DNA of 64,000 bases from positions 53,340 to 117,339 of IMG/VR virus record IMGVR_UViG_2921473944_000002; one strand, given 5' to 3'. The notes beneath the pieces were generated by a model, which saw only the letters and a list, made by a program, of their open reading frames with translations, ran no database searches and was not told the origin of the DNA. A program made the translations under genes and the position numbers. Source of the DNA: a virus (Duplodnaviria; Caudoviricetes). This document shows, piece after piece, positions 2,273 to 64,000 of this stretch. The first letter of the stretch is position 1. Every line of letters begins with the position of its first letter.

Positions 2273-2884
2273 ATGCAGAATATAGATGTCACAGCTTCTG
2301 AAATTTGGGATTACTGCCTAAATCATCAAGAAGCACTTTCGAGAAATCAGCATTTGATGGCAGAAAATCCAGATTACGGGATGGAAGTCTGGCTAACGAT
2401 GATAAATGGTTCCCCGGAGCTTATTGTGGAATGTGATGGTAGTGAAATCTATCGGGAGGATATCCTGAATGAAAAGGATGCAAAGAAAACAGCTGATAGG
2501 ATATATGAAGATTATCTGAGCATCAAAGCAATTGAAACATTGACTGACGATGGCAACATGACGGTTGATGAAGATACAACGGTTTATATCGAGGATGAAG
2601 AAGATGATGAGCAGTCATTGATTGATGAGAGAGAAGATGAGATTGAGTTATCTGTCAGGGATTTTGTAAGTGTAGTGTCAGATACAGGGTGTTACAACGT
2701 AGAAGATGAAGTCATCGATGATTTAAAAGAACATTTCCTTGAGTATATGTATCGAAAATGGGGAATCGGAATCTATAGACCGATGTACCTTGAAGATGCA
2801 GATACAGGAGAGGATTATTTTACGGAATATCCATACGATGATCTGGTATATGAGGATGATAATCCAATATATAAACAAGAGTAG
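2273..2884 (+). CDS. acidic hypothetical protein
   Basis: GAGG RBS; D/E-rich ORF. Confidence 0.65.
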   Translation: MQNIDVTASEIWDYCLNHQEALSRNQHLMAENPDYGMEVWLTMINGSPELIVECDGSEIYREDILNEKDAKKTADRIYEDYLSIKAIETLTDDGNMTVDEDTTVYIEDEEDDEQSLIDEREDEIELSVRDFVSVVSDTGCYNVEDEVIDDLKEHFLEYMYRKWGIGIYRPMYLEDADTGEDYFTEYPYDDLVYEDDNPIYKQE

Positions 2885-2934
2885 TTAAAGCCGACGATTA
2901 TCGTCGGTATGCTTACCAATGCTCGGCTTCCGGG
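2880..2934. repeat. 55-bp direct repeat copy 1, containing hairpin ccgacga-tta-tcgtcgg
   Basis: Identical to 3720-3774. Confidence 0.95.
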
Positions 2935-3002
2935 ATGCCAACCCAAGCGTAAGCGGATAGCGCAAACGGAGTAAATATAAGAGAAAAAAGGAGATAAAAA
3001 TT

Positions 3003-3392
3003 ATGGCAAAAGTAAAAACAATGGGACAGGCAATCGTAGTAGTATCTGATGTGAAACTTGAGGATATCAAGAAGATTGAGAAGTATCGTCCAGATGCGCT
3101 GGTTCTTAAAGGCGGCGAGGACAATAAAGAAGAAATCTTCAGAATCGGTACAGGTAGCAGCAGTATCAATACATACGGAGCTTCTTTCTGTGAAGAGACT
3201 CGTGATGATGATAAAAAGGCTGTTATTACTATGACAACAGGTTACAACGGAGATGATATCAAAGGGTTCATCGCAGATGAGCTTGGTGCAGCTCTGACAA
3301 ACCTCGGAAAGCTTGAAAAAACTATCCCAGCAGTCATCGATGCTATCGACAAAGAAAGAGAAGCTATTATGTCTGGCATTACAGTTGCGTAG
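3003..3392 (+). CDS. hypothetical protein upstream of the Ubl gene
   Basis: AAGGAG RBS; ORF followed by terminator. Confidence 0.75.
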   Translation: MAKVKTMGQAIVVVSDVKLEDIKKIEKYRPDALVLKGGEDNKEEIFRIGTGSSSINTYGASFCEETRDDDKKAVITMTTGYNGDDIKGFIADELGAALTNLGKLEKTIPAVIDAIDKEREAIMSGITVA

Positions 3393-3404
3393 TCTTGCAG
3401 CATG

Positions 3405-3435
3405 TGGCTACCGTCTAGTTGCGGTAGCCATTTTT
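3405..3435 (+). terminator. intrinsic terminator
   Basis: tggctaccg/cggtagcca stem followed by TTTTT. Confidence 0.75.
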
Positions 3436-3492
3436 AAAAACTGAATATGGTACAAAATACATAATTTTTAATGAAGAAAAGGAGATCAAACC

Positions 3493-3720
3493 ATGATTAA
3501 AGTTACAGTAGGAAATAACGTAAAAAGAAACAGCGTAATCGTAGATGAGGCAACAACTCTGAGATCAGTGCTCGAAACAAATGAAATTGATTACACAAGA
3601 GGAACAATGCATCTTGATGGTTCTACACTGCAGCCGGGAGACCTTGATAAGTCATTCTCTGACATGGGAATCAGAGAAAAATGCTTCCTTCTGAACGTAG
3701 TAAAAGCTGATAATGCGTAA
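3493..3720 (+). CDS. ubiquitin-like (beta-grasp) protein
   Basis: 75 aa; beta-beta-alpha pattern (MIKVTV...TLRSVLE...LDG...LDKSFSDMGI...LLNVVK); near E1, E2 and JAB genes; ends in KADNA. Confidence 0.7.
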   Translation: MIKVTVGNNVKRNSVIVDEATTLRSVLETNEIDYTRGTMHLDGSTLQPGDLDKSFSDMGIREKCFLLNVVKADNA

Positions 3721-3774
3721 GTAGTTAAAGCCGACGATTATCGTCGGTATGCTTACCAATGCTCGGCTTCCGGG
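3720..3774. repeat. 55-bp direct repeat copy 2
   Basis: Identical to 2880-2934. Confidence 0.95.
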
Positions 3775-3820
3775 GAGAAATAATCTCCCCGGTATTATAG
3801 GTAATCACGGAGGCGCTACT

Positions 3821-4603: not shown

Positions 4604-4677
4604 GGATTGTTAGCTCAGGTGGTTAGAGCAACCGGCTCATAACCGGTCGGTCATCCGTTCGAGTCGGATACGATCCA
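4604..4677 (+). tRNA. tRNA with CAT anticodon, most likely tRNA-Ile2 (lysidine); CCA not encoded
   Basis: Full cloverleaf: ggattgt/acgatcc acceptor, accgg-ctcataa-ccggt anticodon arm resembling Firmicutes Ile2, TTCGAGT T-loop. Confidence 0.88.
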
Positions 4678-18474: not shown

Positions 18475-20688
18475 ATGAGAGTTTTGTTGTTATTAAGAGG
18501 AAGTGCGGGATGCGGGAAATCAACATGGATTGAACAGCATGGTTTAAAGCAGTATGCATTATCTGCTGATGATATCAGAATGATGTGTTCAAGTCCTCAG
18601 ATGATGCCAGACGGAACACATGCAATCAATCAGGCAAATGACGGAGTGGTGTGGAAGACACTGTTTAATATTCTGGAAACTAGAATGAGAAATGGGGAGT
18701 TTACAGTAATTGATGCCACAAACTCCAAAACAGCAGAGATGAATAGATACAAGAAGATGTGCGACGACTACAGATATAGAATGTATTGCGTTGATTTTAC
18801 CACAATTCCTATTGAAGTCACAAAAGAAAGAAACCGTGGACGGCAGGAATTGAAAAGAGTGCCGGAAGAAGTAATCGATAAGATGTATGCGAGATTTGAG
18901 ACACAGAAAATTCCATCAGGAATCAAGGTTATTAAGCCAGATGAGTTAAACGCTGTTTTGGTGAAGTTGAAAGATGAAATATTTCCGTACTTCTTTTCTT
19001 TGATGTGTTTGTTGCGACGTAATTCAAAAATCCATTCCCCGACAGAATCCGCATTAGGCTCTAACTTCTCTGGCTCTCTAAATACGGTATTCTGTACCTC
19101 GACAGGAACGAAAGACCCATCGTTATCGAGAATAGCTGCTCTAAGATTTCCACCAAACTCGACTCTTCCTTCAAGATTGAAGACATGATCGTTGACTTTT
19201 ACTGGAAGACCTTTGGTATTTCTATGACCATGAACCTGATAGAATCCATCACCCATCTTTTCAGCAAATGTAGATGCGACCTGTTCTGCGTCATTGTATC
19301 TTCCAACACCTTTAATCATCTGACTTGTGGCAACTGTGGTTAAATTATCCGGGATAAAACTCAAACCCGCATGTGTTGCAAGCACTGTTTTTCCACGAAA
19401 TTCATAGTAAGCACACTGTCCCATTCTTCTGTAAAGCTTTCTGATTGACTTCTTGTCGATTTCAGCATCTTCGATCTCGGCTTTTGTATGGAACTCAAAT
19501 TCCTTTGAATTACTTACTTTATCATGCGCCCAGTCCCATAACCACCGTTCGTGATTTCCTTCAAGCAGTAAAACATTCGGCTTATCGCAGGTTGAAAGGA
19601 GAAATTTCAGGACATCAGCATTTTCGATGCCGCGATCTGTATAATCTCCGCAGAAAATATAAAACTCATCATCTTTAAAACCGCCATTCATCTCGAAATA
19701 TGTATCCAGCGCAGTCATACATCCATGAATATCTCCAATGTGATGAATGCGCTTGTACTGGTTCAAATCAAATTTCTTCATAAATACAGCGTTTTATGAT
19801 GGTATTTGGGATTCTCAGACTACAAAGGCGAGAGGTTTGTATATTGATATTCCAAAGCAGAAAATAGTAGCCAGAGCATATGATAAGTTCTTCAATGTGA
19901 ATGAACGACCAGAGACAAAACTTGAAATGCTGCAGGATAAACTGTCATTCCCGGTGAGAGTGTATGTTAAGGAGAATGGATATCTTGGAATTGTTGCAAA
20001 TAATCCAGAAACAGGAGAACTGTTTGTAACTACGAAATCCAATCCGGAAGGATCATTCGCAGAATGGTTTATGGAGGCGCTTCAGAAACAGCTCGGAACA
20101 GAAACACTCAACAAGGTAAATGAGTATTCAAAAGAGCACAATGTATCCTTCGTGTTTGAAAACGTAGATATGGAACGCGATCCACACATCATTAAATATC
20201 CAGAAAGTAAAGTATTTCTTCTTGATATTGTGGTAAACGATATGAATTTCCAGAAGCTGAATTATGAGGATATGTGCAATGTTGCTGACTCAATGAACAT
20301 TCCTCACAAAGAGCTTGGTTATGAGATTGATACATGGCAGGAGTTCTTTGATTGGTATAACGAAGTAATGGCAGAAGATTATAGATACAATGGAAGACTT
20401 ATTGAAGGATTTGTTGTAGAGGATTCGAATGGATATATGGTCAAGCTGAAATTAGCATACTACCATTTTTGGAAGTTCATGAGATCTATTGCTCATGAGG
20501 CAATTAGAAAAGGATATATTGATCCAAAAAGAACGGCTGCACTTGTAACGCCTGTTGCAAATCAGTTCTATGCCTGGGTGAAAACACTTCATGATTCGGA
20601 AGATTTGGACAGCGTTCCGAGGGATATCTGCACACTGAGAGATATGTTTTACGAATCAGATTCAGGCAAGAAATTCAAATATGAATAG
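18475..20688 (+). CDS. polynucleotide kinase-phosphatase-RNA ligase (Pnkp-like), interrupted by an internal inversion
   Basis: GSAGCGKST kinase on +; GDIHGC/GDYTDRG/GNHE phosphatase on -; KENG, FE, EGFV, KLK ligase on +; re-inversion gives one 737-aa frame. Confidence 0.85.
18948..19794 (-). other. inverted segment bounded by inverted repeats (phosphatase domain)
   Basis: aaacgctgt (18948-18956) and acagcgttt (19786-19794), within a 17/21 imperfect IR. Confidence 0.85.
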
Positions 20689-20701
20689 GAGATGATTATT
20701 C

Positions 20702-20809
20702 ATGACGGTAGTTATTGTCGGAGCGGTTTGTTTCGGTGTCGGTCTTTTGACCGGCGTCGGACTTGTTTGTCTAGTCAGTATAGACAGAGTAAACCGTGAG
20801 AACAATTGA
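20702..20809 (+). CDS. 35-aa membrane peptide
   Basis: MTVVIVGAVCFGVGLLTGVGLVCLVS...; AGGAG RBS; below the ORF-track cutoff. Confidence 0.5.
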   Translation: MTVVIVGAVCFGVGLLTGVGLVCLVSIDRVNRENN

Positions 20810-33333: not shown

Positions 33334-34149
33334 TTGGGTGAGATAGTAAGTATCGTAGATGCAAAAAACAAGGTAATTGATTTACATGCATTACAAAGGA
33401 ATAAGGTAAAGTCAGCAGCCGGTTTAATAGCTCCTGCGGCAGAAGAAACCCATTGCGAATTAGCCCCAGAACATGCTGCGGAGCCGATTAAAAGTCTTGA
33501 CGATATCTATGCAATTTCAGAATTTCTCATTTCTAATAAAAGATACAGAGATAATATGCTGTTTATCGTAGGGATAAATTTTGGCTTACGAGTGAGCGAT
33601 TTAAGAATGCTCAGGTTCTCTAATCTAATCAATGATAATTTCACATTTCGTGATAATTTCCCAGTGTTTGAGAAGAAAACAAGAAATACAAGGAAAAGAA
33701 AAAAGAATAGATATATCACAATCAATACCGCCGTTATAGAGGCGGTAACTTTGTATCTGGAGAATAAGCCAAATGTTACACTAAGTGATTATCTATTCAG
33801 GAGCGAATCCAACAGAGGAAAATCATTGAACCAGCCATTATCAAATCAGTCTATTGATAGGATTTTAAAAGGAATAGCTGTTGATTTACATCTAAACATT
33901 AGGATAGCAACTCATAGTTTGAGAAAAACATTCTGTTATCATCAGATGGTTATGTCAAACAACGATAGCAGGAAACTTCTTCTGCTACAGAAGATGCTCA
34001 ATCATTCATCGCCTGCACAGACGTTAGATTATATAGGAATTACGTCTGAGGAAATTGAAGAAGCGTATAAGGCATTGAATCTTGGAGGACGTACTAGGAA
34101 TTATCTGGTTGACAGTAATCTTGTCGAGGCTGAAAGTTCGGCAGGTTAA
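33334..34149 (+). CDS. tyrosine recombinase (catalytic domain)
   Basis: GLRVSD, K, HSLRKT, LNHSS, TLDY catalytic residues. Confidence 0.9.
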   Translation: MGEIVSIVDAKNKVIDLHALQRNKVKSAAGLIAPAAEETHCELAPEHAAEPIKSLDDIYAISEFLISNKRYRDNMLFIVGINFGLRVSDLRMLRFSNLINDNFTFRDNFPVFEKKTRNTRKRKKNRYITINTAVIEAVTLYLENKPNVTLSDYLFRSESNRGKSLNQPLSNQSIDRILKGIAVDLHLNIRIATHSLRKTFCYHQMVMSNNDSRKLLLLQKMLNHSSPAQTLDYIGITSEEIEEAYKALNLGGRTRNYLVDSNLVEAESSAG

Positions 34150-45539: not shown

Positions 45540-45611
45540 AGGGCTATCGCCAAGTGGTAAGGCACAGGACTTTGACTCCTGCATTCGTTGGTTCGAATCC
45601 AACTAGCCCTG
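45540..45611 (+). tRNA. tRNA-Gln(TTG)
   Basis: agggcta/tagccct acceptor; cagga-ctttgac-tcctg anticodon arm; TTCGAAT T-loop. Confidence 0.93.
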
Positions 45612-45657
45612 CTCGGGTGGAAACACCCCAAATAATTATTGAAAGGAGGAATTACAG

Positions 45658-62717: not shown

Positions 62718-62803
62718 AAGTTTGCAGTTGTATTTTTGCGTAAAACAGTGTAATGTATATGTGTAAGTTGATGCTGTAGTCAATATAGAAAGGAATATTG
62801 ATT

Positions 62804-64000
62804 ATGGGAAAAGACTTAAATGGTAAAGAACTTGGTAGAGGATTCAGTCAGAGAAAGGACGGTAGATATGAAGCCAGAGCCGTCATATGCGGCACAAAAA
62901 TAGATATTTATGACATGAATCTAGCGAAACTGAAAAAGGAATTTGAAGTTGAAAAAGCTAGAGTATTGCGAGACGAAAAGAATGTACGACCTAACGTAAC
63001 ATTCAAAGAATGGTATTTAGAGTGGTTTGAAAAATGTAAATCTCCTCAACTAAAATCAGAGGTAAGCAGGAAGACATATGATAGGAAAGTGAGAAACACA
63101 TATTGTAAGATTCTTGGCGATAAGCGTATGGAGAATATCTCACAAATGAATATGCAGGCTGCTACAACCGAATTGGTTGAACAAGGGTATACAGATCGTT
63201 CTGTAAGAGAAGCTCTAGGAATCGTGAATGAATGCATGGAGATTGCGATTGTAAATCACATTATAAATGTAAACCCATGCGTAGGAATCAAAATCCAAAA
63301 TGCGAATGAGCGTAGAGAAAGAAGAGTTATGAAGAAATGGGAGCAAGATTTGTTTCTAAGCGAAGTTAAAAACAGATACTACTACGAAGCATATAAGATT
63401 CTTCTTTTGACTGGCATGAGAATTGGAGAGTTCTCTGGTTTGCAGTGGAGAGATATAGATTTTGAGAATAAAGTCATCAACATTAACAGATCCATGCAGA
63501 CGGCATATATTGATGGTAAGAAAATCGAAGAACTTACAACACCGAAGACAGCAAATTCATATAGAGCAATACCGTTTTTTGGAGAAACAGAGGAGTGCCT
63601 TATAAATTGGAAGAAGAAGCAAGATGAGTATAAGAAACGTCTTGGCGATAGATGGAGGGCAAGACCGGAACTTGGTGACTTAGTATTTACAAGTACGGTA
63701 GGTTCACCTGTAACACGATATGTCATTGTGCATGACATAAATAAAGTAGTCCAAAATATCAATCTTAAAGAGATTAGTAGGGCATTCAGAGAACATAGAG
63801 AGCCTGTTGAATTTGAACATTTACATCCGCACGCTTTTCGTCACACTTTTGCAACACGTTGTTTTGAAAAAGGGCTTGACCCATTATTTGTACAGAGTAT
63901 AATGGGACACGCCGATTATGCAACTACAGTGTCATACACACATATATTAGATGATTTACGTCAGAGAGAGGTAGCGAAGATTGGCAACTTCCTTGAATAA
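62804..64000 (+). CDS. int: phage integrase (tyrosine recombinase)
   Basis: Arm-binding N-terminus, TGMRIGE, PKT, HAFRHTFAT, MGH, Y. Confidence 0.95.
   Translation: MGKDLNGKELGRGFSQRKDGRYEARAVICGTKIDIYDMNLAKLKKEFEVEKARVLRDEKNVRPNVTFKEWYLEWFEKCKSPQLKSEVSRKTYDRKVRNTYCKILGDKRMENISQMNMQAATTELVEQGYTDRSVREALGIVNECMEIAIVNHIINVNPCVGIKIQNANERRERRVMKKWEQDLFLSEVKNRYYYEAYKILLLTGMRIGEFSGLQWRDIDFENKVININRSMQTAYIDGKKIEELTTPKTANSYRAIPFFGETEECLINWKKKQDEYKKRLGDRWRARPELGDLVFTSTVGSPVTRYVIVHDINKVVQNINLKEISRAFREHREPVEFEHLHPHAFRHTFATRCFEKGLDPLFVQSIMGHADYATTVSYTHILDDLRQREVAKIGNFLE

Follow-up and report, generated by a model that had tools for sequence, protein, structure and literature searches.

Known DNA inversion systems and the present locus

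The fim switch of E. coli consists of an intergenic promoter element, fimS, which is turned at 9-bp inverted repeats by the tyrosine invertases FimB and FimE, whose genes lie adjacent to it. In the phages Mu and P1, the serine invertases Gin and Cin act on sites of roughly 26 bp together with an enhancer, and they swap the C-termini of tail fibres, changing the host range. The invertible segments of these phages, Mu G with Gin and P1 C with Cin, are referred to van de Putte et al. 1980, as cited in PMC12823448. A further class, the intragenic invertons of gut bacteria, such as that of Bacteroides thetaiotaomicron thiC with its 11-nt repeats, has been reported by Chanin et al. (bioRxiv 10.1101/2023.03.11.532203); phages are mentioned in that preprint just three times, and at least two of these mentions concern capsule-mediated phage susceptibility. 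The locus considered here lies in a stretch of 64,000 nucleotides (the window), formed by bases 53340-117339 of IMGVR_UViG_2921473944_000002, a 117,339-bp IMG/VR provirus record that is 99% complete. At positions 18475-20688 of the window, the middle part of a gene for a predicted kinase-phosphatase-ligase RNA-repair enzyme is inverted relative to the parts on either side of it. This inversion is a natural, recurrent, site-precise and selected DNA switch, and the locus is best read as an intragenic inverton of a temperate Lachnospiraceae phage, present here in its OFF state, a reading that is given a probability of about 0.77.

The locus shares with the intragenic invertons of gut bacteria the short inverted repeats within coding sequence, the recoding, the premature stop, an invertase that is not named and the gut setting. 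It differs from them in being carried by a temperate phage and in an RNA-repair gene, in that the flip covers precisely one of the enzyme's three catalytic domains, and in the nature of the evidence, which is comparative and drawn from many assemblies, not read-level. The locus adds to this class a member that is carried by a phage, affects an RNA-repair enzyme and flips a whole domain; literature searches returned no previous account of a phage gene for RNA repair that contains an inverton. Like Mu G and P1 C, it is a phage-borne inversion that alters the reading of a phage gene, but it comes with neither a serine recombinase nor an alternative coding cassette, and its outcome is an enzyme that is on or off, not two functional forms. 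With the fim switch it has in common the 9-bp inverted-repeat core and the on/off outcome, as well as small tyrosine recombinases, which drive fim and are candidates here; unlike fim, it is intragenic, and its candidate recombinases stay well below the NCBIfam cut-offs for tyrosine-type DNA invertases. Phage inversions have classically concerned tail fibres and host range, whereas here an RNA-repair enzyme of counter-defence type is switched by the flip of one domain, and selection has maintained this switch in a widespread group of Lachnospiraceae prophages of the human gut.

The interrupted gene and its two sites

The kinase part of the gene (18475-18947, plus strand; P-loop polynucleotide-kinase-like, PF13671 AAA_33, E 5e-23, Pfam span 18475-18957) is followed by an invertible segment of 829 bp (18957-19785), which carries on the minus strand the metallophosphoesterase domain in its entirety (275 codons, with the ATG at 19781; PF00149, E 4.5e-14, Pfam span 19781-18957). 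The Rnl1-type RNA ligase part comes next, again on the plus strand (19795-20688; PF09511 RNA_lig_T4_1, E 7e-43, Pfam span 19789-20685). This Pfam placement agrees exactly with the kinase (+), metallophosphatase (-) and ligase (+) pieces that had been described in an earlier sequence-only reading of the window. The left recombination site (18943-18966) contains the 9-bp core AAACGCTGT at 18948-18956, and its inner flank moves with the segment while its outer flank is fixed. The right site (19776-19799), delimited by sequence, repeat search and conservation, contains the core ACAGCGTTT at 19786-19794. Neither site is assigned a strand, and the positions of both 9-mers had been given correctly in the sequence-only reading. 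The sites, of 24 nt each and in inverted orientation to one another, occupy one inter-domain linker each of a single 737-codon frame. An imperfect repeat with 17 matches over 21 nt had been noted, a count that was reproduced here, and the repeat search extends to 19 nt at 84%. As had also been predicted, inverting 18957-19785 yields a single open frame of 737 amino acids (aa) with the junction peptides DELNAVFMKKFDLNQ and FNFTKTAFYDGIW.

Taken alone, the repeat does not exceed chance: in the surrounding 2.6 kb there are also a perfect inverted repeat of 11 nt and many imperfect ones of 16-24 nt. It becomes significant because it lies exactly at the breakpoints, because the 9-bp core has just two occurrences in the 117-kb genome, because its arms are conserved at synonymous positions and because both orientations are found in relatives. 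No further copy of the site was detected in the whole 117-kb genome with up to 5-6 mismatches allowed. Each site has a partial internal dyad symmetry (AAAC, three bases, GTTT, with TCA-containing arms around them); in our reading, this is how core sites of recombinases are usually laid out, the centre being asymmetric. The NCBI assembly GCA_003461655.1 also contains the OFF-state protein of the window, on contig QTXN01000002.1 (499,243 bp), which places the phage as a prophage within a contig of a bacterial chromosome; this contig runs unbroken across the locus and has it in the inverted orientation.

Both orientations occur among related phages

Viral contigs were scanned at the protein level for the ligase part, and each of the 45 loci that this yielded was typed by tblastn. 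Among the five closest relatives (84-99% aa identity), three are colinear and intact (L002, L003 and L006) and two are inverted like the window (L004 and L005), while the distant viral loci with all three parts are colinear without exception (36/36). The junction alignment of the six close genomes has the core at both borders, with outer flanks that are constant and inner flanks, RTTTATGAAG and TTTGGTGAAG, that trade sides with the segment. In the next relative, L007, the right arm is present, the left arm is absent and the gene is colinear. Comparison with homologous genes in related phages, one of the checks that the sequence-only reading had suggested, has produced both orientations, with the breakpoints in the 9-bp core.

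Metagenome contigs were collected through a left-junction pattern that matches either state; 12 were found, 11 forward and one inverted, and the same pattern had no match in GTDB species genomes. In the orientation-blind sample of the repeat-bearing clade, 4 of 18 loci are inverted, compared with none of the 77 more distant relatives in total (the 36 viral loci and the full-length loci in GTDB genomes, 0/41), in which the left repeat arm is absent; the p value of this difference is ~0.001 by a hypergeometric count of our own. The GTDB genomes with the gene belong to Lachnospiraceae and related Eubacteriales (Acetatifactor, Hungatella, Kineothrix and others). In a collection of 15 billion proteins, the 237-aa OFF-state product forms two 90% clusters, with 31 and 33 members, and one identical OFF-state product is present in seven samples. 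Targeted look-ups of the full-length members of these clusters, which are not orientation-blind, added at least 14 samples with inverted contigs, which came from several pipelines (Logan, ENA MEGAHIT and SPAdes scaffolds). The typed clade loci amount to 14 forward and 17 inverted. The forward-state clusters are bigger (about 1,100 and 940 members), and because they also take in fragments the exact ratio of the two states cannot be derived from them; the best estimate of the inverted share of the clade, taken from the unbiased sample, is roughly one fifth.

The sequence-only reading had kept as fallbacks an assembly artefact or a one-off rearrangement, that is, one fixed in and private to the window genome. 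Assembler k-mers are all longer than the repeat (9 nt perfect, 19 nt imperfect), and about 19 independent assemblies overall have the inverted form; these were made with different assemblers and pipelines, come from NCBI, IMG, ENA and Logan and include the 499-kb contig of GCA_003461655.1, so that an artefact is excluded; the presence of the inversion in three sub-lineages likewise excludes a private event. Refuted by these comparative data, both fallbacks retain a negligible probability. In the short inverted-state contigs the ends are scattered and do not fall at the repeats, with no sign of mixed orientations per sample. One contig, that of L090, ends at the right repeat.

The flip is recurrent and base-precise

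Whole-genome megablast against the five relatives (66-118 kb each, 81-96% identity) returned one inverted block only, G000:72287-73133, which corresponds to window positions 18948-19794 and runs from core to core. All junctions consist of the outer flank, the core and then either inner flank, with breakpoints always in the same 9-bp core. The spacing of the sites is 833 nt in all loci showing both of them except L084, where an internal 1-nt indel is found in a contig at 1.8x coverage; since the spacing is otherwise constant, the junctions are formed without gain or loss of bases.

In a first maximum-likelihood tree, built from the flanks of 18 loci, orientation changes three times, and all three changes are forced by well-supported branches. 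A second tree, of 31 loci, was built from the flanks and the re-oriented segment with the sites excluded, and it contains nine changes, of which well-supported branches make at least six unavoidable; the mean under shuffled labels is 10.5 changes, so that orientation is without phylogenetic signal. Both orientations are present in all three repeat-bearing sub-lineages. Sequences that are near-identical, or that lie at zero tree distance, differ in orientation: the 847-nt segment is 100% identical between L091 (forward) and L005 (inverted), the flanks being 99.4-99.6% identical, and L103 (inverted) has zero tree distance from both. Five of the six inverted genes checked are intact after re-inversion.

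The arms are conserved at synonymous positions

Conservation was assessed on six genes that had been found by protein similarity, a set that is therefore unbiased towards the repeat. In this set variation affects 25% of all nucleotides and 54% of third codon positions, and a 24-nt window holds on average 6.0 variable positions. Of all 24-nt windows in the 2,214-nt gene, the right site alone is invariant, and the left site has one variable position in its 24 nt, a value of one or less being reached by just 1.5% of windows. The two 24-nt arms are the best conserved DNA of the gene. Over both sites, 1/16 third codon positions is variable, against 54% gene-wide, for which a binomial estimate of our own gives ~7e-5. 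Nucleotide-level selection therefore acts on both arms, which would not be expected of a chance repeat.

This conservation, together with at least six to nine independent base-perfect events at one 9-bp repeat, also bears on the proposal that no recombinase is needed, and that the inversion arises through illegitimate recombination or template switching between the arms of a chance 9-bp inverted repeat and seems frequent because the inverted form is selected. Such a route would fit the shortness of the repeat, similar lengths of which arise by chance in the same region, the fact that the right arm is ordinary conserved coding sequence, found in L007 in the absence of the left arm, and the 5-8-nt microhomologies used by the deletions described below. 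It has to contend, besides the arms and the repeated base-perfect events, with the finding that three of the four other rearrangements also lie at the sites and that just two off-site in-gene lesions were noted among the clade loci examined (the L084 indel and a nonsense codon shared by L093 and L094), and it is judged highly improbable. The inference of the sequence-only reading, that the locus is a switch, is upheld by both orientations in three sub-lineages, the same core throughout, the repeated flips and the selection on the arms.

The predicted enzyme and what each orientation would express

The intact allele of the relative L002 (L002:3687-5897) matches PHROG 8238 end to end (E 4.8e-217; residues 1-728, profile positions 1-732 of 737). 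The kinase domain has PDB matches to the kinase domain of C. thermocellum Pnkp (4gp7/4jst), and the phosphatase domain resembles lambda phosphatase and PP1. The ligase domain, with PDB matches to Trl1 ligase domains (6n0v/6n67), is Trl1/Rnl1 adenylyltransferase-like; its score with RNA_lig_T4_1 (PF09511) is 147.5 bits, against a cut-off of 28.3, and the translation contains a KENG lysine nucleotidyl-transferase motif. Walker A, the metallophosphoesterase motifs GDxHG, GDxxDRG and GNHE, and the ligase KxxG are readable in the 737-aa translation. The 737-aa product is thus a kinase, metallophosphatase and Rnl1-type ligase in one chain, an RNA heal-and-seal enzyme as predicted from its domains.

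Like T4 Pnkp with Rnl1, and like the Pnkp of C. thermocellum (PMC2190708, PMC1920235), this enzyme combines predicted 5' kinase, 2',3'-phosphoesterase and ligase functions. The domain order kinase-phosphatase-ligase is that of the C. thermocellum enzyme, to which the kinase is also similar, but the ligase is Rnl1/Trl1-like (PF09511) and not of the type found there; T4, in contrast, has separate proteins and a DxDxT phosphatase. With the bacterial Pnkp equivalog TIGR04075 (Pnkp/Hen1 system) the score is 69.6 bits against a cut-off of 750, the alignment covering only the kinase-phosphatase part, and a distant blastn search of phage GenBank records gave as its sole match 77 nt of Staphylococcus phage RNA ligase genes.

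Variants of the gene are also found. In a 332-kb phage (L040:4395-5864) the kinase is directly followed by the ligase without a phosphatase domain, a natural two-domain form. In another locus (L021:3425-4407) a same-strand insertion of ~980 nt breaks the phosphatase-coding part, and in the protein collection the kinase of P0091 is fused to NUMOD4/HNH_3 domains; this insertion and this fusion suggest that introns or homing endonucleases occur in the kinase-phosphatase-ligase gene family.

The GAGGTGA Shine-Dalgarno sequence (18463), a few bases 5' of the kinase ATG at 18475, is unaffected by the inversion. In the inverted state, the kinase frame reads into 77 antisense codons and stops at 19188, which yields the OFF-state product of 237 aa (18475-19188, plus strand), a kinase domain with an antisense-phosphatase tail that is present in the list of open reading frames (ORFs) and in the clusters of the protein collection. 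The phosphatase ORF is then on the opposite strand without a Shine-Dalgarno sequence. The ligase-only ORF (19747-20688, plus strand, 313 aa; from the ORF list and the sequence) has its ATG, at 19747, immediately after a TGA, is likewise without a Shine-Dalgarno sequence and is probably poorly translated or untranslated. A search of the segment for promoter-like sites found no promoter in it able to act in the inverted state. With the phosphatase antisense and the ligase ORF without a ribosome-binding site, RNA repair would be off in this state: the 3'-end healing and sealing activities would be lost, and at most a tailed kinase would be left. The antisense tail is open for 78 codons; in distant relatives the median is 24, and 2/38 of them reach the same length, a weak hint that the tail of the OFF-state kinase may be kept unusually open. 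A terminator-like hairpin (20732-20761, plus strand), recognized from the sequence, lies 3' of the gene.

The proposed mechanism is that conservative site-specific recombination within the 9-bp core AAACGCTGT flips the 829-bp phosphatase-coding segment. The forward state would give one trifunctional kinase-phosphatase-ligase enzyme, and the inverted state, that of the window, would give a kinase domain with a 77-aa nonsense tail and switch RNA repair off.

Candidate recombinases

The inversion would be performed by a recombinase, most likely a tyrosine recombinase, since three of these (400, 342 and 271 aa) and no serine recombinase, by the criterion of a PF00239 match, were found in the 117-kb genome. 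The ORF at 33334 (33334-34149, plus strand), which the sequence-only reading had named as a stand-alone tyrosine recombinase, indeed matches PF00589 (E 3.5e-16) as well as phrog_216; it is the 271-aa enzyme, in which only about 60 residues precede the catalytic domain and RHR/Y-type motifs are readable. The 342-aa enzyme, encoded outside the window, has an N-terminal SAM-like domain. The 400-aa enzyme, identified by domain search, is a tyrosine integrase at the prophage end (62798-64000, plus strand); this second recombinase of the window is less likely to be the driver. The tyrosine-type DNA invertase models NF007370/NF007371 gave at best 34.6 bits, for the 342-aa enzyme, against a cut-off of 221, and no match for the 271-aa enzyme. 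The 342-aa and 271-aa types are present in five of the five close relatives, in both orientations alike, and their presence is uninformative because they are found whatever the orientation.

In two sister phages that are richer in GC, an orthologue of the 271-aa enzyme (72% identity) precedes the RNA-repair gene on the same strand, at a distance of 15 nt in L027 (orthologue at 2841-3656) and of 23 nt in L017 (2500-3324), and in both phages the two genes form an apparent operon. On this circumstantial support the 271-aa enzyme at 33334 is tentatively placed as the first candidate driver, at rather less than even odds; a host invertase comes next, and the rest of the probability goes to the other two phage enzymes and to recombinase-independent routes.

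The switch might also be real and yet be driven by an invertase of the Lachnospiraceae host and not by a phage enzyme. Gut bacteria are generally known to possess global invertases that act on many sites (Mpi, RecV), and neither the 14 kb that separate the phage recombinase from the switch nor the lack of a site copy beside any phage recombinase gene points to the phage. This proposal sits less well with three phage tyrosine recombinases, all of which are kept in relatives with enough sequence, with the apparent co-transcription of a recombinase orthologue and the target gene in two sister phages, and with the occurrence of the switch in phages from many samples, probably from different host strains; a host driver is regarded as possible but doubtful.

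The L027 contig has a perfect 15-nt inverted repeat (3013-3027 / 3769-3783), which links the recombinase gene to the kinase start. Its 15-mer has 103 matching stretches in viral contigs, and no close relative of L027 turned up in the earlier protein-based scans. Homologues of the small recombinase at 29-32% identity carry one in-frame stop (TGA or TAA) in 7/10 cases, namely G019, G020, G022, G023, G025, G027 and G032, the records behind L032, L033, L036, L038, L043, L045 and L037.

Reversibility and other lesions at the switch

Several points weigh against a dedicated and reversible switch. The evidence consists of assemblies, not reads, so that coexistence of both orientations in one population, and with it reversibility, is presumptive, and the identical core is only 9 bp long. 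The 31-locus tree does not separate many one-way flips from back-and-forth switching. Two inverted loci from two samples, L093 and L094 (ENA ERZ27253945 and ERZ28659387), share a GGA-to-TGA change in codon 410 of the re-inverted gene, and since they share this nonsense codon the segment is unprotected by selection while inverted; some inverted copies, those of the L093/L094 sub-lineage, are accordingly decaying dead ends. As to the driver, repeats at the domain borders were not found in the L027 or L017 genes, the 271-aa recombinase is 14 kb from the switch in the window genome, and the genome scan found no second site copy near any recombinase gene.

Some of these points have a place in a different account, in which the inversion, site-specific or repeat-mediated, is recurrent but one-way and kills the gene each time, loss of the gene is advantageous, for example in lysogens, and the inverted copies never return to the forward state, being evolutionary dead ends. 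Forward is the root state, 77/77 outgroup loci being colinear, and reversals are unprovable from the tree; the nonsense mutation in the inverted segment of L093/L094 and the existence of deletion variants that lack the segment or the whole region agree with this account too. It is difficult to reconcile with arms that are synonymously invariant across about 20% nucleotide divergence, which would be hard to explain for a gene-destroying repeat, with the full integrity of 5/6 inverted genes checked and with an orientation that shows no phylogenetic clustering of any kind, and it is considered unlikely. An intragenic inverton that flips in both directions is preferred.

The deletion variants and a third lesion fall at the sites themselves. 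In L095 (3440-3540; Logan ERR13958090) a 16.8-kb deletion joins the left core after AAACG (window 18952) to an AAACG at window 35774, in a PRPP-synthetase-like gene, with loss of the phosphatase, the ligase and the 271-aa recombinase. In L106 (3469-3560; Logan ERR14039590) exactly the invertible segment is lost: the left outer flank and core now abut the right outer flank, so that the ligase no longer reads in frame. L107 (3505-3540; ENA ERZ28638773) is inverted and has a 2-nt deletion in a T-run beside the core, possibly a locked-off allele. These three loci suggest that the sites are a hot spot for DNA transactions. Four kinase ORFs of the clade (P0123, P0127, P0142 and P0148) cease to follow the usual sequence within a few codons 5' of the left site, and these may be further rearrangements or contig-end artefacts.

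Possible role of the switch

Anticodon nucleases are tRNA-cutting enzymes. The flip, which would be reversible within populations, may be a form of bet-hedging between the benefit of RNA repair, for instance against defences that cut tRNA, and its cost, and the existence of the switch suggests that active RNA repair is costly as well as beneficial for the phage or the lysogen. A fuller version of this proposal, put forward with reserve and held to be rather less than probable, is that a dedicated phage tyrosine recombinase, encoded in the same operon in sister phages, toggles between a trifunctional and a kinase-only form of a counter-defence enzyme. Part of the population would then always be with tRNA repair and part without it, as a hedge against hosts that cut tRNA and hosts in which repair acts as a trigger or a burden.

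The prophage on the 499-kb contig of the public assembly GCA_003461655.1, with a 24-nt site and three candidate recombinases, makes a tractable system. Because gene callers split genes of this kind into pieces, the frequency of invertons in viromes is underestimated. The window also encodes, according to ARAGORN, a phage tmRNA (31109-31438, tag ANRQMLAVA), a tRNA-Met (4604-4677) and a tRNA-Gln (45540-45612).

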